A stretch of DNA of 64,000 nucleotides, taken from the NCBI GenBank assembly GCA_038884615.1, contig JAWABL010000003.1, positions 9,038-73,037 of the forward strand, given 5' to 3'. Position 1 is the stretch's first letter, and each line of letters starts with the position of its first letter. Of the stretch, positions 30,383 to 46,282 are shown piece by piece. The position numbers and the translations under genes are program-made. The notes beneath the pieces are model-generated. The model worked only from the letters and a program-made list of their open reading frames with translations, made no database searches and had not been told where the DNA came from. Source of the stretch: Candidatus Woesearchaeota archaeon. Its GTDB lineage: Archaea; Nanobdellota; Nanobdellia; Woesearchaeales; DSVV01.

Positions 30383-33300
30383 ATGAAAATGAAAAAAAAG
30401 AAACTAAACATTATAGCTTGGTCTTTGCTGTTTATAATAACCTTGCTAATAACAAACGCACAGGAAAGTAATTTAGAAGAGAATACAAAAGCGGAGTATA
30501 ATGGGCTTATCTTTGGTACTGCACAGCAAGAGATAGTTACAAACCCAAGTGGAGATATTGTGTTAAGCGGAGGAGTACAAGTGGAGGTCTTGCCTACTTT
30601 CTCAGGAACTTTAATTGGTGGCTTTGGCGGCTGCATAATAAAAGCCGAAGGCACTACACTGATTCTTATAGAAAGATCAGTTGTGAAGATTAAAAATGGA
30701 AAAATAACCGAGATAATAAACGCGGATGTGAATGAGGAAGCGGTTTTAGCAGGCCACAAAGTTATTGGCAAAAGTATAAGTTTGATTTCGGATACGATTA
30801 GGTGTGGAGTGTCATGCACAATCGACGGTGTTCATATTAAAAATTTAAATCCAGAACAGCCACTCAAAATCTCTTTTTCTGAACAAGGTTTCTTGCTTGA
30901 ACCTGCATCCGTCAGCACAACTGCTGAAATTAATGGAGCGCGCATAAGACTCCATTATGGAAGTAGTATTAGCATAAATGATGGAAAGATTGCAGGATTC
31001 AAACTTGTCGACATACTTGACTCCGTGAACATTAATGGTTTTGATATCAAAGGGAATAAGCTAAGCTACAGCAAAGGTGAAATAAGTTTTTATAGGATTT
31101 CTATAAATCGCCTTAATTTTCAGTCTGGGTACTCCATTGAAGAAAATGTTAAAAATGTAATAACCTTATATGGCAATGGAGAGTTTGCTATCAAGAACGC
31201 AAACATGATTTATCAAACAAACAGAGAAGGAGAGGTTATAAGGCTTTATGAAGCAGGAGATTATCTTTTCTCAGGAGATAGTGAGGTAGAGTTTACCGCA
31301 CAAAACGCTAATTTTAGTGTTTATAATATAGCTGATAGCGTTATAAGGGTTACTGGAGTAACAGAATCAACAAAATTTTTTATTGGCGAATCACCCGAAA
31401 AAAATAGCTGCGGACAAGAAAAAAACTGCGTTGAGTTTACAAGCGCCCAAACATTATATTCCTCGCTTGAAAAGAAGAATAAAATAGAAATAAGTGGATA
31501 CTCAGACAGTTTCCCATTTAGGCTCGTAGACTCGCGAATCTCTGAAGATGCAGAGTTTTCTGTTGGTTCACAGAAGTTTTTATTTACGCAGAGAAATATG
31601 CAAGAGAGCATATCGGATACCGTGCTTCCAAAAGATTTAAATGCAATTATAATAAGGGATGAAAATGGCGGAAGGGTTATTGACTCTACAAGCTATACTG
31701 GCGTTTATGAAGAAATGAATGGAGAGAAGATTGCTTCATTCTCTGCCGAAGTAATGTCAAAAGTTTTAAGGGAACATGAAGAGAGACTGGGATTTTCTAT
31801 AGATAAGTTTCTAGTTGCTCAAGAGAACATAGATTCATTGCAGAAACAGGGCGTAGAAAAAGAGATAATAGATTTCGTACTTGAGTTATATAGGAATCCG
31901 GTATATCTGCTCAGCAAAGATGATATCTCATTCTTGGGGACTTACCTTAACAGGATAAATAAGGAGCACTCTTTTGCGTATGATGTTGTTAGGGAGTATA
32001 TTTTGAGAGAGAGAGAGTACAACGCCAATATCATTGATGAGCTTATCAACCTATACAAGGAAATGCCTAATAGCAGATTCTCAAGGGAGTTAATAACACA
32101 AATGAAACCAAGAGAGTTTTTAAGCCTTGATGCATTAAAGGACCTTGTTGATTTTTCAAAGGAAGAAGATGTCACAAAAATAAGTGACCTCTATTTTGAA
32201 ACAGGAGGAATTCGTGCAATGTCAGACCTTGCTTACCTGGCTAAAACTCATGAGGTAGGTGTCCATAGCTCGGATGACTTTTTTCATTTTATATATACAA
32301 TAATTGACTCCGGCTATGACAAACCGCCTGATTTAGCTTACCCTCCTGAAAAAATGAGGGATATGTACAGATTTTATCTGTACACAGCAAAAGACATGGA
32401 GAGGCTCGCTGTAAGAAAAGAGGGAGATCTTGCACCTGTTACCACATTTTTAGCACTTGAGTTATACATGAAACCGCTGGAAAAAGGGGATGAAAACACC
32501 CTCAATGCATTAAATGAGTTCAGCAACGGACAAGTAGAGTTTGATAGCATGTTATTTAAAAGTAAACCATCCTTTAAAGTGCTTCCTACAGGCCTTCTTG
32601 AGTATAAAGGAGAACCAATTGAGTATAAGAATTTAGACCCCTTAAAGAGGGTGGTTAGTTATATGGACTCTGTTGCTCTTGATGAATCAGTGTCTATTGA
32701 AGAGAGGGAAACACTGTCAGACTATCTTATGTATAAGTCACAGTCACTCTATTTGTATTTGAACGGCTTGCATAACAATAAAAATTTGCGAGAGGAGTTT
32801 GTTAAAAAAATCCCACCTGAATTGTTATTTTACATGATTGCATCATCAGAAAACAATTTTGGAACAATAAGTTATCCAAGCGGACCGCCACAGGTGTATC
32901 CAAGCAGTGAAGAGGTTGTATTGAATTACTATAAAAGCAAAGTAAATCCTCTTCAAGATGCTCTAAAGTATGAAGGACTTCCTGCCTATTCTAATTTTGT
33001 ATACACTCTATCTGACAGAAAACAGATAGACGGATTACTGATAGAAGCGTCACCAGAGGTACAAAGGCATTACACAGAATTTCTTCTTGAAGAGGTTACT
33101 AATCCTAAAGAGAGCGAAGAAGATTATTACAGCAGGACAAAAGTCGCGACTTTAACAATCGGAAGGATTCTGAAGAATGATAAGCAGGAAACCGCAGAGA
33201 CAAGAGAGATGCTTAAAGATGAGATTATCAGTGCGTTAACATCTGATGATTCAAACCTATATTTGCAGTATCTCGTTTTAGACAATAAGAATATTTTTTC

Positions 33301-34084
33301 AGAAGAGGAACTTGATTTATTAGGCTACGACAAAGAGAAGGAAGATTTTCCTAGCTTTGCTCAAAATGTAAAGGATGCTTTTGCATCCAAAAATATTGAT
33401 ATCAAGAGGCTAATTCGAAAGGAAAATGATGGGAGCTATATTTTGCCTTCTGCTATATTCTTCGGCTCACTTCATGAAAAGCAGGAGCAGTACCATTATG
33501 ATAACCTAATTAAAACACTGAAAGAAGATGGCTTTAAGGAGGTGTATCTTAAAGATGTAGAGGAATATTCAGGAAAAAAAATTTCATATGTGCAATTTGA
33601 AAAGATAGTGCCTGTTACATATGAAGATTCTGACGGGGGTCATATTTTAAATGTTAAGATTAAAGTTAATCTGTATCCTAGGATAGCAAGTGAATCGGAC
33701 GAAGTCCCAACAATTGTTTCAACCCGCGGACATGTAGGGACTTCAGCGGCCACATTAGAAAGTTTTCAAGATAAGACGGCACCCGAATTAGTCATCTTTG
33801 GAGGATGCTATGAGTACAGAGACGCTTTTAAGTTTTTCAGCGAATATTCTAATATGCAAATGGCATACGCAACAACTGGAACAGGTAGAGGAGAGATAAA
33901 TAACTACATATTAACAGGTGTCTTTGAAGCTATACAAAAAGGCATTACAGATAGGGAGAAAATGGCGCAGTTTATTGATTCATATGTTCAGACAAAAATA
34001 AAAATGCGCAGTGATCTTAGATTGGCTTTTGAAAGCTACTCACAAGTACCGCAACTGGCAAAAATAAGATATAGTGAAGAATAG
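30383..34084 (+). CDS. Large secreted protein (1233 aa): Sec signal peptide, N-terminal beta-rich ~400 aa, then a long alpha-helical Tyr/Glu/Lys/Leu-rich region. Function unknown.
   Basis: Signal peptide MKMKKKKLNIIAWSLLFIITLLITNAQ. No TM anchor and no recognisable catalytic motifs. Confidence 0.65.
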   Translation: MKMKKKKLNIIAWSLLFIITLLITNAQESNLEENTKAEYNGLIFGTAQQEIVTNPSGDIVLSGGVQVEVLPTFSGTLIGGFGGCIIKAEGTTLILIERSVVKIKNGKITEIINADVNEEAVLAGHKVIGKSISLISDTIRCGVSCTIDGVHIKNLNPEQPLKISFSEQGFLLEPASVSTTAEINGARIRLHYGSSISINDGKIAGFKLVDILDSVNINGFDIKGNKLSYSKGEISFYRISINRLNFQSGYSIEENVKNVITLYGNGEFAIKNANMIYQTNREGEVIRLYEAGDYLFSGDSEVEFTAQNANFSVYNIADSVIRVTGVTESTKFFIGESPEKNSCGQEKNCVEFTSAQTLYSSLEKKNKIEISGYSDSFPFRLVDSRISEDAEFSVGSQKFLFTQRNMQESISDTVLPKDLNAIIIRDENGGRVIDSTSYTGVYEEMNGEKIASFSAEVMSKVLREHEERLGFSIDKFLVAQENIDSLQKQGVEKEIIDFVLELYRNPVYLLSKDDISFLGTYLNRINKEHSFAYDVVREYILREREYNANIIDELINLYKEMPNSRFSRELITQMKPREFLSLDALKDLVDFSKEEDVTKISDLYFETGGIRAMSDLAYLAKTHEVGVHSSDDFFHFIYTIIDSGYDKPPDLAYPPEKMRDMYRFYLYTAKDMERLAVRKEGDLAPVTTFLALELYMKPLEKGDENTLNALNEFSNGQVEFDSMLFKSKPSFKVLPTGLLEYKGEPIEYKNLDPLKRVVSYMDSVALDESVSIEERETLSDYLMYKSQSLYLYLNGLHNNKNLREEFVKKIPPELLFYMIASSENNFGTISYPSGPPQVYPSSEEVVLNYYKSKVNPLQDALKYEGLPAYSNFVYTLSDRKQIDGLLIEASPEVQRHYTEFLLEEVTNPKESEEDYYSRTKVATLTIGRILKNDKQETAETREMLKDEIISALTSDDSNLYLQYLVLDNKNIFSEEELDLLGYDKEKEDFPSFAQNVKDAFASKNIDIKRLIRKENDGSYILPSAIFFGSLHEKQEQYHYDNLIKTLKEDGFKEVYLKDVEEYSGKKISYVQFEKIVPVTYEDSDGGHILNVKIKVNLYPRIASESDEVPTIVSTRGHVGTSAATLESFQDKTAPELVIFGGCYEYRDAFKFFSEYSNMQMAYATTGTGRGEINNYILTGVFEAIQKGITDREKMAQFIDSYVQTKIKMRSDLRLAFESYSQVPQLAKIRYSEE

Positions 34085-34251: not shown

Positions 34252-35178
34252 TTATTTTCTTATCATATCGTCTGACAAAAATACTGAAAGCCAGTTTCTA
34301 TCTACACTGTTTGCCTTAAATTCTTCCCTTAGTCCTGTTCCATACCTAACTACAGTAACGGTTGTGCCCACATCAACTAAAGAAAACAAATCATCTATAT
34401 CCTCGTTTGAAAGTGCAAAACATCCGTGTGTCCAGTTGCTTCCGCCATAATTTCCGGGTTTGCCGCTTCCCCCTCCGTGAATTTCAATTTGCCCTCCAAT
34501 AGAAGTATTTTTTGCGATGACTCCTCTTTTTCTTAAATCGGCAAACCGTTCAAGGTTGGATTTATTTGGATAGTTAATAAGGAGTGCTTTATAAAAAACA
34601 GTTTGGCCCTTATCTTTCTTAGCTAAAATTGAGTATTTTCCTTCTGGAGACCTATAATCGCCTTCCTGTTGCTTATCAAATATTGGGTCATAGCCAAGTT
34701 CCAAAGGATACTGCCTTATTACCTGCCCATCCTTTAAAAGAGAGAGTGTATATTCCGACTTATCAATGATTATTGCACTTTGCTTAGTTCTTAATGAATA
34801 CCCCATTGCTTCATTAATCCATGACAAGTATTTCGTCAAATCTGAGTTATTAAATTCATATATGATGGCCATGTTCCTAGCATAACTTCTCCATTCATTA
34901 TCAATTATTCTTTTTTTTAAATCCTCAAACAACTCTCCAGACAGGTTTACCTTGTCTGAAAGTTCTTTTTCCGTTATATTTTTTAAAGTAGATTGTGGCT
35001 TACCACCAGAATTTGGAAAAAAGGTATTTGACTCTTTTAAATCAGGTTTATTAGTGCCAATAAAGTTAATACTATATTTATTAAGTGTAGACATACCTAA
35101 ATAAAGTAGTCCGGCAATGCAGCCAGCACTTATTGCAGCCCCTAAACCATTAGTGATATAATCTTTCATATTTTTCAT
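34252..35178 (-). CDS. L,D-transpeptidase (YkuD) domain protein with an N-terminal membrane anchor
   Basis: Catalytic motif IHGGGSGKPGNYGGSNWTHGCFALSNEDIDDL (His...Cys of the YkuD fold). N-terminal TM GLGAAISAGCIAGLLYLGM. Confidence 0.75.
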   Translation of the reverse strand: MKNMKDYITNGLGAAISAGCIAGLLYLGMSTLNKYSINFIGTNKPDLKESNTFFPNSGGKPQSTLKNITEKELSDKVNLSGELFEDLKKRIIDNEWRSYARNMAIIYEFNNSDLTKYLSWINEAMGYSLRTKQSAIIIDKSEYTLSLLKDGQVIRQYPLELGYDPIFDKQQEGDYRSPEGKYSILAKKDKGQTVFYKALLINYPNKSNLERFADLRKRGVIAKNTSIGGQIEIHGGGSGKPGNYGGSNWTHGCFALSNEDIDDLFSLVDVGTTVTVVRYGTGLREEFKANSVDRNWLSVFLSDDMIRK

Positions 35179-35550
35179 ATTATAACTAATAAATACACTA
35201 CTTATTTATAAATTTTTTGTTACTTTAAGGTGGTAATTTATATAGAAAGAGAGAATTAAAAAGGGATTGACAGGTATTTTTAAGTGGCGTTGCGTATGAA
35301 TTAGAAAAGTTATTTTTATTGATGTAATTTTTGAACGATGTAAGTGCAGTGTGACACAATGATACGGTATAATTCAGGTATTAAAAGGTCCAATATAAAA
35401 ATAAGAAAGCTAACAAAACTTTTATAAACACTTCAGAAATCCAACAAATGCCTTTAAAATTAAGAATATGATGATACAATGGGAGCCTGTTGTATATCAT
35501 TTTATATCACTTTGTTATTATAAGTTAATATCATAAGTCAATGGTTTTAA

Positions 35551-35877
35551 GTGGTGATTAGGATGGACAAGAAGATAAAAGAGATTCTCAAAAGCGAGGA
35601 CGATGCTGAAAAGATTCTTGAAAAAGCCAAATATGAAGCTGAGAAGATAATTGCGTCTGCAAAAAAGGAAGCATTGACTAAAGCAGAAGAGAGAGAAAGA
35701 AAGCTTGTTTCGCAGAGGGATGCAGAGATTAAAAAAGCCAAGGAAGAGGCAAAAAAAGAGAGGGATACAATCATAATAAAGACAAAAGAAGAGATAAAGG
35801 CTATTGAAAAAAGAAGCCTTGCAAACCAAAAGAAGGCCGCAGACTATCTTATTCAGAGTATTATAAAAGAAAAATAA
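35551..35877 (+). CDS. atpH: A-type ATP synthase subunit H
   Basis: 108-aa charged coiled-coil protein (KEEAKKERD...). First gene of the A1Ao operon. Confidence 0.75.
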   Translation: MVIRMDKKIKEILKSEDDAEKILEKAKYEAEKIIASAKKEALTKAEERERKLVSQRDAEIKKAKEEAKKERDTIIIKTKEEIKAIEKRSLANQKKAADYLIQSIIKEK

Positions 35878-35888
35878 AAACAAGGAAA

Positions 35889-37763
35889 ATGCTTAAGCCT
35901 GAACGAATGGCTAAGGTGCGGATTGTCTGCACCAAAGAGCACCTGAGAAGGATTGTAAAAGAACTGCACAATATGAAAGTTTTGCATATTGTAGAGCATA
36001 GAAAAGATGATGCTCTTGATATTGGAACACCTCTAGAAGAGGCACAGCGTCTTTCAGAAATAATTATAAAGATTCGCAGCATAATAAGCTACTTAGACTT
36101 AGCAAATTTCAAGCCAAGTGAAGAAGACTATGAGGAATTTGTCGCCAAAAAAGGAACCTGCGATTTGAAGAGTATAGGCAATGCCGCAAAAGAGGTTCAT
36201 GAGCAGATAGTAGAGAGACTTAACAGAGAAAAGGAGTTAAACGCGGAAATTCAAAGGCTTACAAGGTTAGCAGAAGATATGGAGATGCTCTCGGCTTTAA
36301 ATCTTGAACCGACAACATTTAGGGACTCCAAGGTTATATCCTCTTTTTTCGGCACAATTGGAAGCTTAGTTGGTTTTGAAAAAGAAATAAAACAAAATAT
36401 AAAAAAGTTCTCGCTACATACTGCAGAGGTTAAAGGCAAGCAGGCAGTTGCTCTTTTTGTTAAAAACGAAGACAAACAAAAGGCACTACAGTTTCTTGGA
36501 AGCAGAAACTTCACAGAGATAAAGATAGATGCAACACTTAAAGGTTCTCCTGAAGAGCTTGCAAAAAAATTTCAAAAAAATATTGTAACAATTGAAGCTG
36601 AGAGAAAGGAAATCCTAAAAGAGATTAATAGTCTCCGAAGCGAATGGGCTAATTTTTTCGTGGTAAACGAAAAAAGGCTAAGCAAAGAGATTGAAAAAGC
36701 AGAAGCGCCATTGAAATTTGCAGAGTCAAGAAAAACAGCAATAATAACAGGATGGATTCCGGAGGAATCATATCAGGAAGTATTTGAAAAACTTAACGAG
36801 GTTACACAGACAAAGGTGTTCATAGAGTGCCTTAATTCGGATGGCGAACATGAGGTACCTATAAAGCTTAAACATAGCCAACCTGTAAAGAGCTTTGAAT
36901 GGTTTATGGACTTATACAGCCTGCCAAATTACGCTGAGATAGATCCGACACTATTTATGTTTGTAACATTTCCGATTTTTTTTGGTTTTATGCTCGGCGA
37001 TATTGGATATGGGCTTGTAACGCTAGCACTTTTTATTTTCCTTAGGAGTAAGATTCCTGAGGGAAGATTCCTATTAAATGCAATGATTTTAAGCTCGCTA
37101 TTTACAATTGCATTTGGCCTTGCTTATGGAGAGTTTTTCGGACTTGAAGAGATAGGCCATTTTGAACTGCCCCATCTTTTAAGCAGGACACATGAAATAA
37201 ACACTCTTCTTATTATAGCTGTTAGCATAGGCGCGTTTCATGTAACTTTTGGCCTTGTAATGGGGTTCATAAATGAGTTGCATCATGGCTTCAAGCGTGC
37301 ACTTCTAGAGAAGGGTTCGTGGCTAATTATGGAGGCTGGCATTGCTGTTCTTGCATTAAGCCTTGCAAAGATATTGCCGCTGCACTGGGCTACTGGAGCA
37401 ATTATTGCGGGACTTGGCGCAGTGATGCTGTTCTTTGGCGAGGGTATTAAAGGGGTCATTGAGCTTCCAACACTTTTTAGCCATATGCTTTCATACGCCA
37501 GGCTCATGGCTGTAGGGCTTGCATCTGTATTTCTCGCTGTCGTTGTAAACGAGTATAGTCTTGAATTCATCCATCAAGGAGGCGCAATGATTGTTGTAGG
37601 AATACTTATTATGATAATAGGGCACATCATTAATATAGCATTGGGCATAATAGGTCCTTTTTTGCACTCATTAAGGCTGCACTATGTGGAATTTTTTACT
37701 AAGTTCTACAAAGGCGGCGGAAAAAAATACGCGCCGTTTGGCGCACAAAATCAGGAGGTATGA
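35889..37763 (+). CDS. atpI: A-type ATP synthase subunit I (stator a-subunit)
   Basis: 624 aa: hydrophilic N-terminal half plus a polytopic C-terminal half, with the conserved C-terminal region (LRLHYVEFF..KFY.G.G..Y.PF). Confidence 0.9.
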   Translation: MLKPERMAKVRIVCTKEHLRRIVKELHNMKVLHIVEHRKDDALDIGTPLEEAQRLSEIIIKIRSIISYLDLANFKPSEEDYEEFVAKKGTCDLKSIGNAAKEVHEQIVERLNREKELNAEIQRLTRLAEDMEMLSALNLEPTTFRDSKVISSFFGTIGSLVGFEKEIKQNIKKFSLHTAEVKGKQAVALFVKNEDKQKALQFLGSRNFTEIKIDATLKGSPEELAKKFQKNIVTIEAERKEILKEINSLRSEWANFFVVNEKRLSKEIEKAEAPLKFAESRKTAIITGWIPEESYQEVFEKLNEVTQTKVFIECLNSDGEHEVPIKLKHSQPVKSFEWFMDLYSLPNYAEIDPTLFMFVTFPIFFGFMLGDIGYGLVTLALFIFLRSKIPEGRFLLNAMILSSLFTIAFGLAYGEFFGLEEIGHFELPHLLSRTHEINTLLIIAVSIGAFHVTFGLVMGFINELHHGFKRALLEKGSWLIMEAGIAVLALSLAKILPLHWATGAIIAGLGAVMLFFGEGIKGVIELPTLFSHMLSYARLMAVGLASVFLAVVVNEYSLEFIHQGGAMIVVGILIMIIGHIINIALGIIGPFLHSLRLHYVEFFTKFYKGGGKKYAPFGAQNQEV

Positions 37764-37996
37764 AAATGGCAGATATTGGAACTGGCTTGATTGCTGTAGG
37801 AGCTGGCCTTGCGGTCGGTTTAAGCGCGATTGCGGCTGGAGTTGCAGAACAGCAGATAGGTGCTGCAGCAGTGGGCGCTACCGCTGAGGATGAAAAGATG
37901 TTTGGTAAGGGGCTTATATTCACAGTAATACCTGAAACGCTTGTCATCTTCGGACTGGTTATAGCTATAATGCTGATAGGACTTATAGGCAAGTAG
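37760..37996 (+). CDS. atpK: A-type ATP synthase subunit K (proteolipid c)
   Basis: 78-aa two-helix proteolipid with GLAVGLSAIAAGVAEQQIG and an ion-binding Glu (IPETLVIFGLVIA). Confidence 0.9.
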   Translation: MKMADIGTGLIAVGAGLAVGLSAIAAGVAEQQIGAAAVGATAEDEKMFGKGLIFTVIPETLVIFGLVIAIMLIGLIGK

Positions 37997-38005
37997 GTGT
38001 AGCAA

Positions 38006-38551
38006 ATGACGCTAAACGGCGTTAAAGAAGAGATAATTAGCAGTGCGAAAGCAAAGGCAAAACAGATCATTGAAGCTGCAAAAAAAGAAGCCCATGAGAT
38101 AGAGCGTAAGGCAGAGGAAGACTTTGAGAAAAGAGAAAGTGCATTTAGGGAAGAGACAAAAAACCTCATATCTGCATTAAGGATGAGGGAAAGGTCCTCT
38201 GCGAACCTTGAGGCAAAGAAACTGGTTTTCGAAGCTAAAAAAAAGCAGATTGACGATGTGTTTACTCTTGCAAAAAAAGAGATATCAAAGCTTTCTTCAA
38301 AGGAGCGCGAAAAAATTATGAAATCATTCATCAAGAAAGCGAAAGAAGAGATGGATATTGCAAGAGTATACTGCAATAAACAGGACATGAAATATATTGA
38401 AGGTGTTGAGGTAAAAAGCGCAGAAATCTCAGGTGGGCTCATAGCCGAGAACAAAGATGGCTCAATTAGGATAGATTATAGCCTAGACACACTGCTAAAC
38501 GAGGCTCGCGAAAAGGAGCTTCAGGCTGTTGTTGGTGTACTTTTCAAATAG
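38006..38551 (+). CDS. atpE: A-type ATP synthase subunit E
   Basis: 181 aa: charged helical N-terminus plus a globular C-terminus typical of the A/V-type peripheral stalk subunit E. Confidence 0.85.
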   Translation: MTLNGVKEEIISSAKAKAKQIIEAAKKEAHEIERKAEEDFEKRESAFREETKNLISALRMRERSSANLEAKKLVFEAKKKQIDDVFTLAKKEISKLSSKEREKIMKSFIKKAKEEMDIARVYCNKQDMKYIEGVEVKSAEISGGLIAENKDGSIRIDYSLDTLLNEAREKELQAVVGVLFK

Positions 38552-38602
38552 ATTGGGCTAAGAGTAGAGTTTGTAGAAAGATAATATAGAAGGACGAGGA
38601 TA

Positions 38603-39655
38603 ATGAAACTAAACACAAAAATTAAACTTAGGTCAAAAGGATATCCGTACACTTATGCGCGGATAAGCGTGATGCGAAGAAATCTTCTTCCAAGAAATGA
38701 GTACCATAAGCTCATGAAAATGAAAGTTGAGAGCATCGCCCGCTATCTTGAAGAGTCAAGCTACAAGTCTGCGATAGACAAGGAGGGTCTGCGCTATAGG
38801 GGGGCTGATCTTATTGAACACTCCCTAAATGTTGACCTTGTGAACACTTTCATAAAGTTGCGCCGGATAAGCCCTCCTGAGGTGCGCATACTCATAGATA
38901 CCTATGCTGGAAGATGGGACATGTATAATATAAAAACAGTCATAAGAGGTATATATAGCAAAGCAGATAAGAACTATATTAAGTCACTTCTTATACCGGC
39001 TGGCTTGCTTGACGAGATGGTTCTTGATGAGCTCCTAAAAAAAGAAAGTGTAGAGAACATTATAAGAAGTACAAGGATATTAAAGCTTGAAAAAGTCAAG
39101 GACGCCCTCCGAACACTGTCTGAAACAAGGAAGCTTGTTGAGATAGAAAACAAGCTTGACCAGATATATTACGAGAATTGCCTTCTTGTAGCAAAGCGGC
39201 TTGGTCATGAGGGGAAACTTTTTAGAAAATTTCTTATGATGGAGATAGACATTATAAATATAAGAAACATATTAAGAATGAAGAGAGAGAAATTTGACAA
39301 AAAGGAGTGCATGAGTTACATTATTTTCTCAGGAGAGAAACTTAAGAAAGGTATGCTTGAAAAGCTTGCAGCGCTTGAAAGCGTTGAGTCAGTGGTTGAA
39401 GAGCTAAAAAAAACAAACTACGGAGAACTGCTCAAAAACACACAATCCTCGCTCATAGATGCTGAGCTTGAACTGGACAGATATCTTATAAAACGTTCAT
39501 TCCTATATACACATCAGTATCCAATGAGCGTTATGTCTATTCTTGCATTCATGCTAGGAAAGATTATGGAAGTGAAAAATTTAAAGACCATTGCCAAAGC
39601 AAAACAGCTTGGAATTGAAGAAAGCATTATAGAAGAAAAACTGGTGGTAGTCTGA
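38603..39655 (+). CDS. atpC: A-type ATP synthase subunit C (V-type d)
   Basis: 350-aa all-helical protein in the conserved operon position. Confidence 0.85.
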   Translation: MKLNTKIKLRSKGYPYTYARISVMRRNLLPRNEYHKLMKMKVESIARYLEESSYKSAIDKEGLRYRGADLIEHSLNVDLVNTFIKLRRISPPEVRILIDTYAGRWDMYNIKTVIRGIYSKADKNYIKSLLIPAGLLDEMVLDELLKKESVENIIRSTRILKLEKVKDALRTLSETRKLVEIENKLDQIYYENCLLVAKRLGHEGKLFRKFLMMEIDIINIRNILRMKREKFDKKECMSYIIFSGEKLKKGMLEKLAALESVESVVEELKKTNYGELLKNTQSSLIDAELELDRYLIKRSFLYTHQYPMSVMSILAFMLGKIMEVKNLKTIAKAKQLGIEESIIEEKLVVV

Positions 39656-39960
39656 TGTCAGAGATTGTTGCACTAGGCTCAAACGAATTTGTAGTTGGGT
39701 TTCAGCTTGCAGGTGTTAGAGCTATGGAAACCGAGCCAAATAGAGTCAACGAATCCGCTGAAAAACTTATTGAAGACTCAACAGTAGGCATAGTTATACT
39801 CGGTCAAGAGACATATCAGTTATTAAGCCAAAACATGAAGGAGCGCGTACTTCAGTCCATTAAACCAGTATTTGTAGTTTTATCCGAACAGGAGTCCAGC
39901 GAAGAACTCAGAATGCTTATAAAAAAATCAATAGGTGTTGATTTATGGAATAAGGAGTGA
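39655..39960 (+). CDS. atpF: A-type ATP synthase subunit F
   Basis: 101 aa ([20 protein letters not shown]...). Typical AtpF. Confidence 0.85.
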
Positions 39961-39964
39961 TATC

Positions 39965-41707
39965 ATGGAGAAGGTTACAAAAAAAGGCGTACTTTACAGG
40001 ATTGCAGGACCTGTTGTTGTCGCAAAAAACATCAGTGCACGGATGTACGATGTTGTAAGAGTTGGAAACGAACGGCTTATGGGTGAAGTAATTCAAATAA
40101 ATGAAGACGAAACAGTTATTCAAGTCTATGAGGACACATCTGGCTTAAAGCCAGGAGAACCTGTAGAAAACACCGGACTCCCTCTTTCAGTAGAGCTTGG
40201 ACCGGGTATGCTTACAAGTATATATGATGGGATACAACGACCGCTTCCTGCCCTAAAACAAAAGATGGGGGATTTCATAAGGAGAGGAGTTGATGCTCCA
40301 GGACTAAGCCATACGAAAAAGTGGGATTTTAAAGCAATAGCAAAAAAAGGAGAGGTTGTAACACCTGGAATGGTTATTGGAGAGGTTGAGGAAACAGAAG
40401 GTCTTATGCATAGGATTATGGTTCCGCATGGTGTTCAAGGTAAAATAAAGGAGATAAAAAGCGGAAAATTTACTGTGACAGAGACTATATGCATACTGGA
40501 AGATGGAAGTGAAATTAAGATGATGCAAAAGTGGCCAGTTAGGGTTCCAAGACCTGTAAAAAACAAGCTTGCACCTGAGATTCCGCTTATCACAGGACAA
40601 AGAATATTTGACATTCTCTTTCCGCTCGCAAAAGGTGGAGTTGCTGCAATCCCGGGTCCATTTGGTGCAGGAAAAACAGTTTCGCAGCAGCAGCTAGCGA
40701 AATGGGCTGATGCAGATATTATAGTTTATGTGGGCTGCGGTGAACGCGGAAACGAGATGACAGAAGTTCTTACAGAGTTTCCTCATCTAATAGACCCAAG
40801 GACAAAGAGGCCTTTGATGAACCGAACGGTGCTTATTGCAAACACCTCAAACATGCCAGTTGCAGCAAGAGAAGCAAGCATATATACCGGAGTAACAATC
40901 GCAGAGTATTACAGGGATATGGGGTATAATGTAGCGCTTATGGCAGATTCTACATCAAGATGGGCAGAAGCTATGAGAGAGATATCATCAAGACTTGAAG
41001 AAATGCCTGGCGAGGAAGGTTATCCTGCGTATCTTTCAACAAGGCTTGCAGAGTTTTACGAACGAAGCGGCAGAGTTATTCCTATGGGCGTTGAAAAGGA
41101 AGGCAGCGTGACTATAATAGGCGCAGTAAGCCCACCAGGAGGAGACTTTTCAGAGCCAGTCACACAGTCCACGCTAAGAGTTACAAAAACATTCTGGGCT
41201 CTTGACGCAAAGCTTGCGCAGAGAAGGCATTTTCCTTCAATAAACTGGCTTACTTCATACTCGCTTTATCTAAGCACACTAGAGCCATGGTTTGCGCAGA
41301 ACATCGCAGGAGACTGGAGAAACTGCGTTGACCAGATAATGACAATACTCCAAGAAGAAGAAAAGCTTATGGAGATTGTGCAGCTTGTAGGAAGTGACGC
41401 ACTGCCTGAGAAAGAGCAGCTGACGCTTGAGGTTGCAAGGCTTATCAGAGAGTTCGTACTTCAGCAGAACGCCTATCATGAAATTGACACTTACTGCGAC
41501 CTGAAAAAAAGCTATAAGCTTATGAAGACTGTTCTTTATTTCAATGAGATCGCAAACGGATCGCTTGCCGCAGGAACAGGAATAAAACGAATTCTTGCAA
41601 CAAAATCAAAAACAAAGATTGGAAATGCTAAATTCGAAAAAGACTATGAGAAGCTGCTTGATGGTGTCAAGAAAGAGATTGAGCAGGAATTCAAATCATT
41701 AGGGTGA
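39965..41707 (+). CDS. atpA: A-type ATP synthase catalytic subunit A
   Basis: P-loop [12 protein letters not shown] motifs and the non-homologous region characteristic of the A subunit. The likely start is [18 protein letters not shown] at 39965 rather than the track's 39935, which overlaps atpF. Confidence 0.9.
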
Positions 41708-43077
41708 TTGCGATGAAAGAGTATAAAACCATTACACGAGTTGCGGGTCCGCTCATTTTTGTAGAAAAAACAGACCCCATTGGATATAATGACCTTGTCT
41801 CCATAAAACTTCCGGATGGAAGAATAAAACAAGGCCAGGTGCTTGATACATCAGAAAATATTGTTGTTGTTCAGGTTTTTGAAGGAACATCTGGCATTGA
41901 TAGGGAAACGAGGGTTAAGTTTCTTGGAGAAACCATAAAGCTTTCAGTGTCTAGGGACATGCTTGGAAGAATCCTTAATGGAGCTGGAAAACCTATTGAT
42001 GGAGGACCGGAGATAATACCGGAAAAAAGGATGGACATAACAGGAGCAGCAATAAATCCATATTCAAGAGCGAGTCCAGCTGATTTTATTCAGACGGGAA
42101 TAAGCACAATTGACGCCATGAACACGCTTGTACGTGGTCAAAAGCTTCCTATATTTTCAGGCTCTGGACTGCCGCATAACGAGATTGCGCTTCAGATAGC
42201 AAGACAGGCGAAGGTAAGAACTGAGGGTACAAGCTTCGCGATAATTTTTGCGGCGATGGGCATTACAAACGAAGAGGCCCAATATTTTATGAAGGACCTT
42301 GAAGAAACTGGCGCGCTTGAAAGAGCAGTAGTTTTTTTGAATCTTGCAGATGACCCTGCCGTTGAAAGGCTTATTACCCCAAGGATGGCGCTTACAGCAG
42401 CTGAGTATTTTGCTTACGAGCATGATATGCATGTGCTTGTCATATTGACAGACATGACCAACTATTGTGAAAGCCTAAGAGAGATTGGCGCTGCGCGTGA
42501 GGAGATTCCTGGAAGAAGGGGCTATCCAGGCTACATGTACACAGACCTAGCTAGCATATATGAAAGGGCAGGAATGATACATGGGAGAAAAGGTTCTATT
42601 ACACAGTTCCCTATACTAACGATGGTCGGAGACGACATAACACACCCAATTCCCGACCTAAGTGGGTATATAACGGAAGGACAGATTGTTCTTTCAAGAG
42701 AGCTACATAGAAAAAATGTTTATCCGCCTATTGATGTCCTGCCTTCTCTCTCAAGGCTAATGAATCTAGGCATTGGAAAGTCAAAAACAAGGGATGACCA
42801 TAAGCAAGTTAGTGATCAGCTTTATGCTTTCTATGCAGAGGGAAGAGATCTTCGCGGACTAGTTGCGATAGTTGGCGAAGAAAGCTTAAGCGAGCGCGAC
42901 AAGAGGCTGCTTAAGTTCGCGAAAGAGTTTGAGGATAAATTTGTTCGCCAGGGAAGGACTGAGGACAGATCAATTGAGACCACGCTTAAGATTGGCTGGG
43001 ACCTCCTAAAGATGATACCAAAAGAGGACCTCACAAGAATAAGCCCTGAGCTGAAAGAAAAGTATTATGGAAAATAA
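41704..43077 (+). CDS. atpB: A-type ATP synthase subunit B
   Basis: 457-aa non-catalytic subunit ([12 protein letters not shown]..., [15 protein letters not shown]). Confidence 0.9.
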
Positions 43078-43115
43078 GAGGTAGAAAATAGATAGAGATA
43101 GAACGAGCACTAACA

Positions 43116-44045
43116 ATGATAAGAACAATAAGGTGGGCAAAAATGAAAAAAATAGAGATTGGTGATATTGAAGACCCTGACACTAGAAAATTTTTGAGGG
43201 ACTTAAGTGAGATTCAAGGAACTCCTGAGATTGATGTATATACATGCTCAGATGCAAGGATGAGCGCCGTTCGGCAGATTTTGAGCCAAATGGGGAATGT
43301 TAATATAATATCAACAGCTGGCAACATAGTTGAATCGCCAAATCCAAGGCTATCGATAATTATAGGCCACGGAATCTCGTCGCTTGATAAGGGTTGCGGC
43401 GCGGTTGACTACAAAAAAAGCCTTGAAAAAGAACTTGGCAGGGGGGCTACGCATGGAAATTCTGACGGATTTCCAGGACTCAAAAAAAATGTTTTACCTG
43501 GAATTAAAGACAATGCACATGCCCAGCTTGAGCGGGTTCCTGAAAAGTTCAGGGCTGGAGTATTTTATTTTGAGCAGGACACTGGAAGAATAAGAAGCGA
43601 GCCTTCAAATAGCAAGTATGCAATGTACAAGGAGGGCACGGCGCTTTTTGAAAGGGTTGAGCGCTCACTAAAGGGGTATTTTTCAAATGACGAACTTGAG
43701 GCTATGAAAAGGGGACAGGACCCAAAGATTATTATGGTTACCAATTTCAATGTTGCACAGACAGCCGAGCCTGTTTTCCGTGTGAACGTGCAAAGCGAAA
43801 TAACACAGGTGGTTATGGACTCTTTACATTACGCAGTAAGCCACGCACTTGGAGAAGGAAGTTTCAGAAGCAGCAGAAGTACAATCATTGCGTTAAAAGG
43901 TGGGTTGCCTGAAAGACTCGAAGAGTTTCTCTCAGGATCAAAAATACTCAAAGAGTATGTCCATGGAAACAACGGAAGAGAAAAGGGAAGTCTATACCTC
44001 GTTGAGCTAAGAGGTAATGAGAAGACTGTTTACAAGGCAGTTTAA
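43116..44045 (+). CDS. Uncharacterised 309-aa protein inserted between atpB and atpD. The N-terminal ~100 aa are beta-carbonic-anhydrase-like (CSDAR ... GNVNIISTAGNIV ... IIIGHGISSLDKGCGA). The C-terminal ~170 aa are unknown.
   Basis: C-x-D-x-R and (N/T)AGN(I/V)V-like blocks and a GH...CG segment recur in the beta-CA order, but with shortened spacing (H-x9-C rather than H-x2-C). Confidence 0.6.
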   Translation: MIRTIRWAKMKKIEIGDIEDPDTRKFLRDLSEIQGTPEIDVYTCSDARMSAVRQILSQMGNVNIISTAGNIVESPNPRLSIIIGHGISSLDKGCGAVDYKKSLEKELGRGATHGNSDGFPGLKKNVLPGIKDNAHAQLERVPEKFRAGVFYFEQDTGRIRSEPSNSKYAMYKEGTALFERVERSLKGYFSNDELEAMKRGQDPKIIMVTNFNVAQTAEPVFRVNVQSEITQVVMDSLHYAVSHALGEGSFRSSRSTIIALKGGLPERLEEFLSGSKILKEYVHGNNGREKGSLYLVELRGNEKTVYKAV

Positions 44046-44076
44046 ACCATTTTAAACCGATTCGTGCAGATTAAAA

Positions 44077-44709
44077 ATGTCGCAAAATATAAAGCCAACA
44101 AGGAGTGAACTGATTAATCTCAAGAGAAAGATAAAGCTAGCACAAAGCGGATACAACCTTCTTAAGAAAAAGAGAGATGGACTTATAATGGAGTTCTTTG
44201 AAATTTTGAAAGAAACAAAGACATTAAGGCACGAGCTTGTTGAAGAGTATAGGAATGCGGTTTATAAGATGAACATTGCACGGGCTGCAGAGTCTGACTT
44301 GCATATAAAGTCAACTGCCCTTGCAATCGCACAAAAGCCTGAAATAATGGTGGAAACAAGAAATCTCATGGGAGTCGTTGTCCCGAAGATATCAAGAGAC
44401 TCAGATATAAAGAAGCAGTTTGCACATAGGGGGTATGGAATTATATCAGGAAGTTCAAGAATTGATGAGGCTGCGCACAGCTTTGAGATTGTAGTTGAGA
44501 AAGCAATCAAGGTGGCTGAAGCTGAGATTTCAATGAAAAAGCTACTGATAGAAATTGAGAAAACAAAAAGGCGCGTCAATGGGCTTGAATTCGAAATAAT
44601 TCCAAGGATGACAAGGCTAAAAAATTTCATCACCTTAAGGCTTGAAGAGATGGAGAGAGAGAATACATTCAGAATGAAGAGAATAAAAGGAAAAGAGGAC
44701 AGAGAATAA
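44077..44709 (+). CDS. atpD: A-type ATP synthase subunit D (central stalk)
   Basis: 210 aa (TRSELINLKRKIKLAQSGYNLLKKKRD...). Typical AtpD. Confidence 0.9.
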   Translation: MSQNIKPTRSELINLKRKIKLAQSGYNLLKKKRDGLIMEFFEILKETKTLRHELVEEYRNAVYKMNIARAAESDLHIKSTALAIAQKPEIMVETRNLMGVVVPKISRDSDIKKQFAHRGYGIISGSSRIDEAAHSFEIVVEKAIKVAEAEISMKKLLIEIEKTKRRVNGLEFEIIPRMTRLKNFITLRLEEMERENTFRMKRIKGKEDRE

Positions 44710-44764
44710 TTCATCATTATAATGTTACTAAGATTTCCATAAAAAAAGAGTCAGAAGTTACCTT

Positions 44765-45613
44765 CTAAAGAACCATTGCTGCATACTCGCACATCGACAT
44801 AAGCTTTATTTTATGTAGATTAGCTTTAATAAACTCAACAACTGTATCCCAATACGCTTTTCCTCCATTATAGAACTTCTGAGAGTGCATTGAGATAATT
44901 ACTGCTTTTTTTATTTCAATCTCCTTTTTTAGCATTCTTTCAAGCTCGCTGTTTGAAATGCCAGCAAGATGCCAATTATAGTCCATACCAAGAAGTTTAC
45001 ATTTATTGTCTCTTATATATTGTGGAACGCCTATCACTTTTATTCCAAAATGCATCCTAAGAAAATCGCCTGCATGAGACGTATCGTACTGATAGCCGAG
45101 CTCTCGAAGCGCTTCATACATCGCGTCATTATAGCTTAAATACGGCGCACGGAATCCAACAGCCTTATATGGTCTGCCATTTTTAAAAAATAGTTTCTCA
45201 ATATGCCCATCAAACTCAGAAAGCTCATCAACCCACTGCTGCTTGCTCCAATTTTTTCCATTTTTTCCTCCATCATAATGCCTTACTGTATGCGAACCGA
45301 TCTCATGCCCCTCTTCTATTGCCTTGCTCATCAGCTCCAGTCTTTTAGATATGTCCTGCTTTGAAGAACATCCTAAAGTTGACCCACCTTTTATGGTTTC
45401 AAAAAGGCTCACAGTGTTTATAAAATAGGTAAACTTTGTTTGACATCCTGAGAGTTCAGACAACTCCCTTGAGAGGCGCAAGGACTCATTAATAGTATCA
45501 GTGTAACTAATTCCATCTATACATAAGATTAGCGGTTTTCTTTCTCCTAAAACAGCATCAATGCCTACACCAACAAGCCCTTTAATAAACTGCCTTCTGT
45601 TGATAGTATTCAT
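44765..45613 (-). CDS. NodB-type polysaccharide deacetylase (CE4) with a Tat signal
   Basis: N-terminal NRRQFIKGLVGVG twin-arginine motif. CE4 His motif GSHTVRH and Asp-containing motif 1. Confidence 0.78.
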   Translation of the reverse strand: MNTINRRQFIKGLVGVGIDAVLGERKPLILCIDGISYTDTINESLRLSRELSELSGCQTKFTYFINTVSLFETIKGGSTLGCSSKQDISKRLELMSKAIEEGHEIGSHTVRHYDGGKNGKNWSKQQWVDELSEFDGHIEKLFFKNGRPYKAVGFRAPYLSYNDAMYEALRELGYQYDTSHAGDFLRMHFGIKVIGVPQYIRDNKCKLLGMDYNWHLAGISNSELERMLKKEIEIKKAVIISMHSQKFYNGGKAYWDTVVEFIKANLHKIKLMSMCEYAAMVL

Positions 45614-45667: not shown

Positions 45668-46282
45668 TTATTTTAGTATTTTTTTTATATCCTCAAATAT
45701 CAAGGCAATATGTCTTTCACCATCAATCCTTTGGTGTACGCCTCTTTTTTTATAGAAATCAATTACCGGAGCTGTCTCCTTATGGTATAATTCAAGCCTT
45801 TTTTTAACAGCATCAGGCTTATCATCGTCACGCACCTTAAGTTTTCCACCACACTTTAAGCATTTCTTAGCATTGTCTAAATAGCCGTAGATGGCACCGC
45901 AGTTTTCGCAGTTTTTCCTGCCTGAAATCCTTCTGACTGCCTCTTTGTCGCTTATATAAATCTCAAGTGCAAGGTCTATCCTCGCGACTTTTTCAAGCGC
46001 CTCTGCCTGATTTATTGTACGCGGATATCCATCAAGAACAAATCCCTTTTTGCAGTCTTTTTTTGCAATCCTGTCTGCAACTATAGCGTTTGTAACATCA
46101 TCCGGTACAAGCATTCCCTTAGCTATATAACTTTCCGCAATCTTTCCAAGCTCAGTTTTACTCTTGATATTTTCCCTAAAGATATCTCCTGTGGAGATAT
46201 GCGGCCAAGCAAATTCTTGAGAGATAAGCTTAGCCTGTGTTCCCTTGCCAGAGCCTTGGAGTCCAAGCATAACAACGTTCAT
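45668..46282 (-). CDS. adk: Adenylate kinase (short bacterial/eukaryotic type with Zn-lid)
   Basis: P-loop GLQGSGKGTQA, the STGDIFR motif, and lid cysteines C-x2-C...C-x2-C. Confidence 0.85.
   Translation of the reverse strand: MNVVMLGLQGSGKGTQAKLISQEFAWPHISTGDIFRENIKSKTELGKIAESYIAKGMLVPDDVTNAIVADRIAKKDCKKGFVLDGYPRTINQAEALEKVARIDLALEIYISDKEAVRRISGRKNCENCGAIYGYLDNAKKCLKCGGKLKVRDDDKPDAVKKRLELYHKETAPVIDFYKKRGVHQRIDGERHIALIFEDIKKILK

Follow-up and report, generated by a model that had tools for sequence, protein, structure and literature searches.

A two-domain protein of the beta-carbonic anhydrase fold encoded within the A-type ATPase operon of Woesearchaeota

In the beta-carbonic anhydrase (CA) of Coccomyxa, two monomers share the active site. 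The first provides Asp49, Arg51, Gly107 and Ala108 together with the zinc ligands Cys47, His103 and Cys106, and the second adds Gln38', Phe66', Tyr88' and His92' to the active-site channel (PMC3230598). Two such folds also occur in one chain: the C-terminal domain of CsoSCA is an ancient duplication without the zinc residues, which leaves one site per pseudo-dimer (PMC10614612). DabA is tied genetically and physically to a cation-translocating membrane protein (PMC13144422). Here we describe gene X, located in an A-type ATPase operon, between its genes atpB and atpD, on a 64,000-nucleotide stretch of a Candidatus Woesearchaeota archaeon (GenBank assembly GCA_038884615.1, contig JAWABL010000003.1, positions 9,038 to 73,037). 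This whole stretch is called the window. Its product, protein X, is very probably a zinc enzyme of the beta-CA fold with one composite active site, and related genomes carry CA-type genes in the same atpB-atpD slot. We estimate a probability of about 60% that X acts as a CA in the cytoplasm, is co-expressed with the ATPase and buffers or supplies H+ and HCO3- for ion pumping. Coordinates of all features are listed in Table 1.

Protein X belongs to a small family. An exhaustive phmmer search of 1.84 billion cluster representatives gave a family of 19 sequences, and the alignment used here holds 18 sequences with 26-43% identity to X. Invariant in this alignment are C44, D46, R48, R53, A68, G69, H85, C94, G95, A96, N133, Q137, G148, Q201, P203, F221, Y239 and G291. 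A word-indexed protein search with X returned X as the sole match, a metagenome scan with a subset of five family sequences returned one locus, and a PDB sequence search with X found only the Cab beta-CA 1g5c (E 0.0043). The Pfam model Pro_CA matched 2 of 18 single family members at E <= 1, both below threshold; the long-form X protein of locus L062 reached 24.4 bits. With the family profile, a beta-CA was found among the PDB sequences at an E of only about 0.8. Plain hidden Markov model searches are thus unable to place the family, and profile-profile and fold comparisons are decisive.

An AlphaFold2 model of X calculated from the 18-sequence alignment had a mean predicted local distance difference test (pLDDT) of 92.2 and a predicted template modelling score of 0.91. 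The family alignment was needed for this result, as AlphaFold on the single sequence gave a pLDDT of 36. The model has the alpha/beta fold of beta-CAs, and the top matches in Foldseek were all beta-CAs. A confident match to an unrelated family without a metal site, the counter-case named by the initial annotation of this DNA, was not obtained; all profile and fold matches were beta-CAs. A hydrolase of this fold for a molecule like carbonyl sulfide (COS) or CS2, with an incidental operon position, is highly improbable. The COS hydrolase 3vqj was a weak sequence match and a CS2 hydrolase was among the fold matches, and both enzymes have the same Cys-His-Cys and Asp-Arg site. True CAs were nevertheless the best fold matches, and bona fide Pro_CA and LCIB-type CAs in the equivalent slot of relatives argue for an equivalent function.

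Each half of X was aligned by hhalign with nine canonical beta-CAs from the operon slots of relatives. The N-terminal half matched with a probability of 94.4% (E 8.6e-8), and the match spans CSDxR, AGN and GH...CGA. The same ordered blocks had been read by the initial annotation; they occur unchanged throughout the family, with CSDAR at C44-R48 and AGN at residues 68-70. The cis set C44, D46, R48, H85, C94, G95 and A96, which includes the Asp-Arg dyad of the CxDxR motif, is conserved in 18 of 18 sequences. C44, H85 and C94, aligned with the zinc ligands in canonical beta-CAs, are the putative Cys-His-Cys triad. The second ligand, earlier numbered His84 in a motif H-x9-C, is His85 in H-x8-C. 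The loop of eight residues that separates His85 from Cys94 is modelled with confidence, at a pLDDT of about 94-96. Aligned to the invariant His, the His-Cys spacing in the family is x2 (L030), x3, x7, x8 and up to about x15. The compressed spacing between blocks that had been noted before is real: 41 residues separate the first Cys from the His in X versus 52-61 in canonical relatives. The segment that would hold the Tyr and His is absent from the N-terminal domain, and its would-be trans positions are unconserved.

The C-terminal half, some 170 residues first described as devoid of a recognisable motif, proved to be a degenerate second beta-CA domain. It matched the nine canonical beta-CAs with a probability of 90.7% (E 1.3e-6, 110 columns). 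For both halves, the similarity far exceeds what chance would give. The CSDSR block is deleted, HxxC is lost and the would-be ligand positions are variable. Q201, P203, F221 and Y239 are present in 18 of 18 family members and H243 in 17 of 18. These residues align to the invariant Q31, P33, F59, Y77 and H81 of the canonical beta-CAs, whose positions agree with the residue offsets of the Coccomyxa enzyme. Q201, F221, Y239 and H243 are accordingly placed where a partner chain would donate Gln, Phe, Tyr and His. A direct hhalign comparison of the two halves of X gave no signal, and an internal duplication is supported only through the match of each half to canonical beta-CAs and through the fold.

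What one domain has lost of the active site, the other has kept, which is the signature of a single composite site. One chain of X would then hold one complete active site, with zinc and trans residues from separate domains. The N-terminal domain would give the ligands C44, H85 and C94, the dyad Asp46-Arg48 and Gly95-Ala96. The C-terminal domain, a duplicated beta-CA fold without zinc, would give Gln201, Phe221, Tyr239 and His243. The initial annotation had proposed a divergent or non-catalytic relative of beta-CAs. The divergent beta-CA stands; a non-catalytic protein appears less likely, as cis and trans parts of the predicted site are both invariant.

CsoSCA (PDB 2fgy, 8thm and 9g4t) is like X in having two beta-CA folds per chain with the zinc domain first, and X appears to share the order of a catalytic domain followed by a zinc-less duplicate. 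CsoSCA has an N-terminal helical and Rubisco-binding region of about 150 residues without a counterpart in X, in which strand beta-1 follows after only about 38 residues. X is archaeal, shares about 12% identity with CsoSCA and is encoded among ATPase subunits, outside a carboxysome operon. The Pfam CsoSCA model matched neither X nor the family members scanned. The compact two-domain, one-site architecture of about 300 amino acids arose separately from CsoSCA. The tandem beta-CA of Porphyridium purpureum (PDB 1ddz) resembles X in fold; it keeps the zinc site in both repeats, whereas X has it only in the N-terminal domain. Single-domain beta-CAs (PF00484, the Cab type and those of the slot) share CxDxR, (A/I)GN, H...CGA, the dyad and the fold with X, and some Woesearchaeota PF00484 proteins also its position between atpB and atpD. 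They are, however, homodimer-forming proteins of 190-270 amino acids with HxxC, and they combine in a single domain the cis and trans residues that X splits between two. DabA (PF10070) is similar to X in its two beta-CA-like domains with one catalytic core. It differs by a 280-residue N-terminal domain, by Leu in place of the catalytic Gln and by its partner, a complex-I/Mrp-type subunit instead of a rotary ATPase. In sequence, DabA and X gave no sign of similarity here. The best description of X is that of a small new subclass within the beta-CA superfamily. A single-chain beta-CA with two halves and one active site is previously undescribed. The family is invisible to current family models, and its members are therefore annotated as hypothetical proteins.

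The position of gene X within the operon was confirmed, with gaps of 38 bp to atpB and 31 bp to atpD, among junctions that range from -26 to +51 bp in the ATPase operon. The proposed subunit order H-I-K-E-C-F-A-B-D holds from I to D by Pfam; H is placed by position only. Gene X has a GC content of 0.424 and a GC content at third codon positions (GC3) of 0.390. The GC/GC3 values of its neighbours are 0.431/0.360 (atpA), 0.435/0.380 (atpB) and 0.382/0.403 (atpD). Compositionally, X is indistinguishable from these genes and a native part of the operon, and a recent horizontal insertion was ruled out on these values. Promoter and terminator calls were made at the pattern level. No plus-strand terminator-like hairpin was found between 43000 and 44100, and neither gap beside X has a run of five or more T. 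X is most likely transcribed together with atpA and atpB, as judged from this arrangement, and its co-expression with the ATPase is likely. In the public annotation, the gene begins at 43143 (Met10, 300 amino acids) and not at 43116 (309 amino acids). A Shine-Dalgarno-like AAGGTGG precedes the Met10 start; conservation of Trp7-Ala8 across the family favours the start at 43116.

The slot was surveyed in relatives with atpB as query and one genome per species. The 80 closest of at least 554 matches were from Woesearchaeota and Nanoarchaeota. Their atpB identities were 79-85%, and 74 loci had both atpB and atpD, at distances of -1 to 1453 bp. The slot was empty in 46 of these loci and an ORF-less spacer of more than 200 bp in seven. 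It was occupied in 21, and 16 of these contained profile-supported genes of the CA fold from three lineages. Canonical beta-CAs were encoded in ten (Pfam Pro_CA, E down to about 1e-26), X-family proteins in three (L030, L062 and L077) and LCIB-type beta-CAs in another three (PF18599, E 3e-35 to 4e-53). The LCIB family is best known for algal CO2-concentrating mechanisms. Two slots encoded Na+/H+ exchangers (PF00999, E 8e-67) and one an unassigned ORF. The remaining two encoded proteins of about 180-200 amino acids, here called T45, with a beta-CA-like Q-x8-C-x-D and HxxC spacing and no statistical support. The hhalign probability of T45 against beta-CAs was 16%, and neither Pfam nor PDB searches gave a meaningful match; from these motifs, T45 may be a fourth CA-like lineage. 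About a quarter of the related Woesearchaeota species thus have some CA-type gene in the slot. The arrangement, thought novel at first, is not unique to this genome.

Throughout the flanking DNA of the survey (about 0.85 Mb), the sole other CA match was directly after atpD (L039). Occupied slots were scattered among empty ones in a weakly resolved neighbour-joining tree of atpB. Decayed CA remnants were not found at E < 0.1 in the seven ORF-less spacers above 200 bp or in seven shorter ones. Spacers of 250-380 bp without an ORF were seen in L001, L002, L011, L029, L034, L036, L049, L075 and L076; they had no CA or exchanger remnant (all E > 0.1), and some had a GC content of 0.18-0.31.

X-family genes were found in the slot at seven independent loci. 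The order atpB-X-atpD also occurs in L084 and L086, found by protein identity. In L081 and L082, a Pro_CA gene and an X-family gene stand in tandem (atpB-Pro_CA-X-atpD), with overlapping stop and start in L081. Such a tandem would fit an X family that arose when a slot beta-CA was duplicated, or a cooperation of the two proteins. Four further canonical beta-CAs were sampled from the protein database, and three were again in an ATPase operon. The gene orders were atpB-CA-349-aa hexapeptide-repeat protein-atpD in L088, atpB-CA-269-aa protein-atpD in L090 and atpD-CA with a 4-nt overlap in L089. Outside the operon, one X member (L087) is located 36 bp downstream of a Na+/Ca2+-exchanger-family gene and another (L085) adjoins a CNNM/CorC transporter gene; a third (L083) is at a contig edge. 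A shared neighbour of the non-operon members was considered and rejected, because the neighbours of about 460 amino acids in L083 and L085 are unrelated.

At least three distinct CA lineages came independently to one junction, which makes chance or a merely permissive site very hard to invoke and strengthens the idea of a functional link. X could still be an ordinary biosynthetic CA for carboxylations, placed in a strongly and constitutively expressed operon of a small genome without any tie to the pump. The many empty slots, the X members and beta-CAs elsewhere in genomes and the small, streamlined genomes of this group would fit. The lineages recur, however, at this junction or directly after atpD and in no other constitutive operon of the sampled flanks. 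Na+/H+ exchangers share the slot or are located just downstream, and X members outside the operon adjoin cation transporters. Slot recurrence, exchangers and transporter neighbours suggest a theme of ion and pH homeostasis, not a generic expression site, and a plain biosynthetic CA is unlikely.

Woesearchaeota are reported to be fermentative and to lack an electron transport chain (PMC5994134). Without a respiratory chain, their ATPase would probably run mainly as an ATP-driven ion pump. X would be a cytoplasmic zinc beta-CA, built as an intramolecular pseudo-dimer. Beside the pump, on the cytoplasmic side, it would keep the reaction CO2 + H2O <-> HCO3- + H+ equilibrated. The supply or uptake of protons would then keep pace with ion movement, directly or via Na+/H+ exchange, and cytoplasmic pH and a usable ion gradient would be stabilised. 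The specific pH- or proton-buffering role is held more tentatively, at slightly less than even odds.

A CA beside a proton-handling membrane machine is known from eukaryotes, in CA II with acid/base transporters and alpha-CA5 with CF1Fo. 'Metabolons' of CAs and transporters are discussed for eukaryotic acid-base transport. For the thylakoid alpha-CA5 beside the ATP synthase, a local tuning of pH was proposed (PMC8427869). These couples involve alpha-class enzymes from unlinked loci, whereas the link of X is a gene association at operon level in archaea. In the slot CAs, prokaryotes may have a parallel to the couples of CA and proton pump in acid-secreting cells and thylakoids. A physical metabolon, in which slot CAs dock on the A1 sector or the peripheral stalks and ATP-driven ion translocation is directly coupled to CO2 hydration, is distinctly unlikely. 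If true, it would correspond, for a rotary ATPase, to the vectorial carbonic anhydrases DAB and CUP, and ultra-small fermentative archaea could spend ATP on trapping inorganic carbon or on controlling their pH.

Bicarbonate itself could be the effector: local bicarbonate would activate the A1 head, relieve Mg-ADP inhibition and favour ATP hydrolysis. A bicarbonate-stimulated mitochondrial ATPase has long been known, and X is encoded between the catalytic B and the stalk D subunits. Oxyanions relieve Mg-ADP inhibition in rotary ATPases (PMC8039183). A soluble CA, however, speeds equilibration and does not raise steady-state bicarbonate, and the Na+/H+ exchangers in the slot would be left unexplained, which makes a bicarbonate effector very unlikely.

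Several observations weigh against X as an active CA partner of the ATPase. The 46 relatives with adjacent atpB and atpD show that the ATPase can do without a CA, and X does not have the universal presence of an A1Ao core subunit. The three X members L083, L085 and L087 are not beside ATPase genes. In the gap between X and atpD, the TTTTAAA could act as an archaeal TATA box inside the operon and give a leaderless transcript of atpD; the string has three matches in the 9.6 kb scanned (35301-44900), another being upstream of atpH at 35421. The c subunit (atpK, 78 amino acids) carries Gln31/Gln32 on its first helix and Pro58-Glu59-Thr60 on its second, a pattern that resembles the Q...ET signature of Na+ binding in some A/V-type c subunits. 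If this assignment is correct, the pump may be Na+-coupled, and a direct proton supply would be less straightforward. The beta-CA fold also includes COS and CS2 hydrolases. Pfam PF00484 (Pro_CA) matched residues 43-86 of X at E 0.011 with 16.4 bits, below the gathering cut-off of 25.7, and an NCBIfam scan of X gave no match. X has H-x8-C and not the canonical HxxC, and with the widely varying loop length the zinc geometry is only inferred.

The sub-threshold Pfam score and the non-canonical, variable loop would also fit a protein that has lost catalysis and serves as a CO2- or bicarbonate-sensing or structural part on A1Ao. The same holds for L081, whose slot contains X beside a canonical Pro_CA and thus not as a simple replacement of it. 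Yet all seven cis positions and four of the five C-terminal positions are invariant despite identities down to 26-30%, a conservation pattern expected of a working active site. X is also missing from the operons of most relatives. A pseudo-enzyme or accessory subunit is about as improbable as the bicarbonate effector.

An active CA co-expressed with the ATPase remains the preferred reading. CO2/bicarbonate enzymes of at least three lineages, together with Na+/H+ exchangers, are recurrently linked to the A-type ATPase of Woesearchaeota. For DPANN archaea without respiratory chains, a dedicated CA partner is a concrete hypothesis for the role of the ATPase and for pH and ion gradients. That CAs recur in the slot points to a partnership, not reported before, in which CO2/bicarbonate chemistry and the pump work together. 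A full-text literature search found no paper on a CA-ATPase operon association in Woesearchaeota or DPANN; in public metagenome-assembled genomes, the canonical slot CAs already carry the annotation 'carbonic anhydrase'.

Table 1. Features of the window and of related loci (locus-numbered positions refer to the respective locus).
Feature	Position	Strand	Basis or remark
Gene X	43116..44045	+	309 aa, ATG start; NCBI: 'hypothetical protein QXK37_01305', start Met10
N-terminal beta-CA domain, residues 1-165	43116..43610	+	putative zinc site and Asp-Arg dyad
Codons C44-S45-D46-A47-R48	43245..43259	+	putative first zinc ligand and Asp-Arg dyad; codons read directly
Codons H85 to C94-G95-A96	43368..43403	+	putative zinc ligands H85 (second) and C94 (third); Gly95-Ala96 of the active-site wall
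C-terminal degenerate beta-CA domain, residues 166-309	43611..44042	+	zinc ligands lost
TTTTAAA in X-atpD gap	44050..44056	+	27 nt before atpD ATG; pattern evidence only
A-type ATPase operon (H)-I-K-E-C-F-A-B-X-D	35551..44709	+	Pfam
Small H-like ORF	35551-35877	+	placed as H by position only
atpI	35889-37763	+	Pfam
atpK	37760-37996	+	Pfam
atpE	38006-38551	+	Pfam
atpC	38603-39655	+	Pfam
atpF	39655-39960	+	Pfam
atpA	39935-41707	+	Pfam
atpB (A-type ATPase B subunit)	41704..43077	+	PF00006 E 2e-81, PF22919, PF02874
atpD (central-stalk D subunit)	44077..44709	+	PF01813 E 7e-54
Flanking gene	30383-34084	+	
Flanking gene	34252-35178	-	
Flanking gene	44765-45613	-	
Flanking gene	45668-46282	-	
LCIB-type CA in slot	L052:7404-8099		PF18599
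LCIB-type CA in slot	L066:7370-8137		PF18599
LCIB-type CA in slot	L071:7985-8734		PF18599
Na+/H+ exchanger in slot	L035:7558-8754		PF00999
Na+/H+ exchanger in slot	L063:7387-8544		PF00999
Na+/H+ exchanger just downstream of atpD	L045:9711-10904		CA-type gene in slot
Na+/H+ exchanger just downstream of atpD	L037:9099-9410		CA-type gene in slot
T45 slot protein	L045:7637-8173		178-203 aa (both T45); Q-x8-C-E-D, H-E-V-C, dyad Arg missing
T45 slot protein	L061:7398-8009		as above
Tandem of Pro_CA (239 aa) and X-family gene (304 aa) between atpB and atpD	L081:5285-6915		same in L082
Second slot ORF of L088, 349-aa left-handed beta-helix	L088:4651-5700		PDB 3c8v E 7e-14; weak gamma-CA match E 0.01-0.1
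Second slot ORF of L090, 269 aa	L090:4573-5382		faint LCIB_C_CA match E 0.055
Overlong atpA frame	L024:291-3500		600-1500 nt overlong (all four)
Overlong atpA frame	L034:2854-5892		
Overlong atpA frame	L061:1384-4626		
Overlong atpA frame	L053:2924-5260		

The overlong atpA frames of four loci suggest inteins in the catalytic A subunit. In L008 and L017, no atpD was present within 6 kb downstream of atpB, and L017 also had no atpA upstream; their ATPase clusters appear split or rearranged. The products of the genes flanking the operon in the window include a protein with a YkuD-type L,D-transpeptidase domain, which is unusual for an archaeon, and an adenylate kinase. A flanking polysaccharide deacetylase had a weak, sub-threshold match to a Pfam TAT-signal model (E 0.05). 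A flanking protein of 1233 amino acids has a hydrophobic N-terminus and is possibly secreted. An adenylate kinase is encoded downstream of the operon in L088 too.

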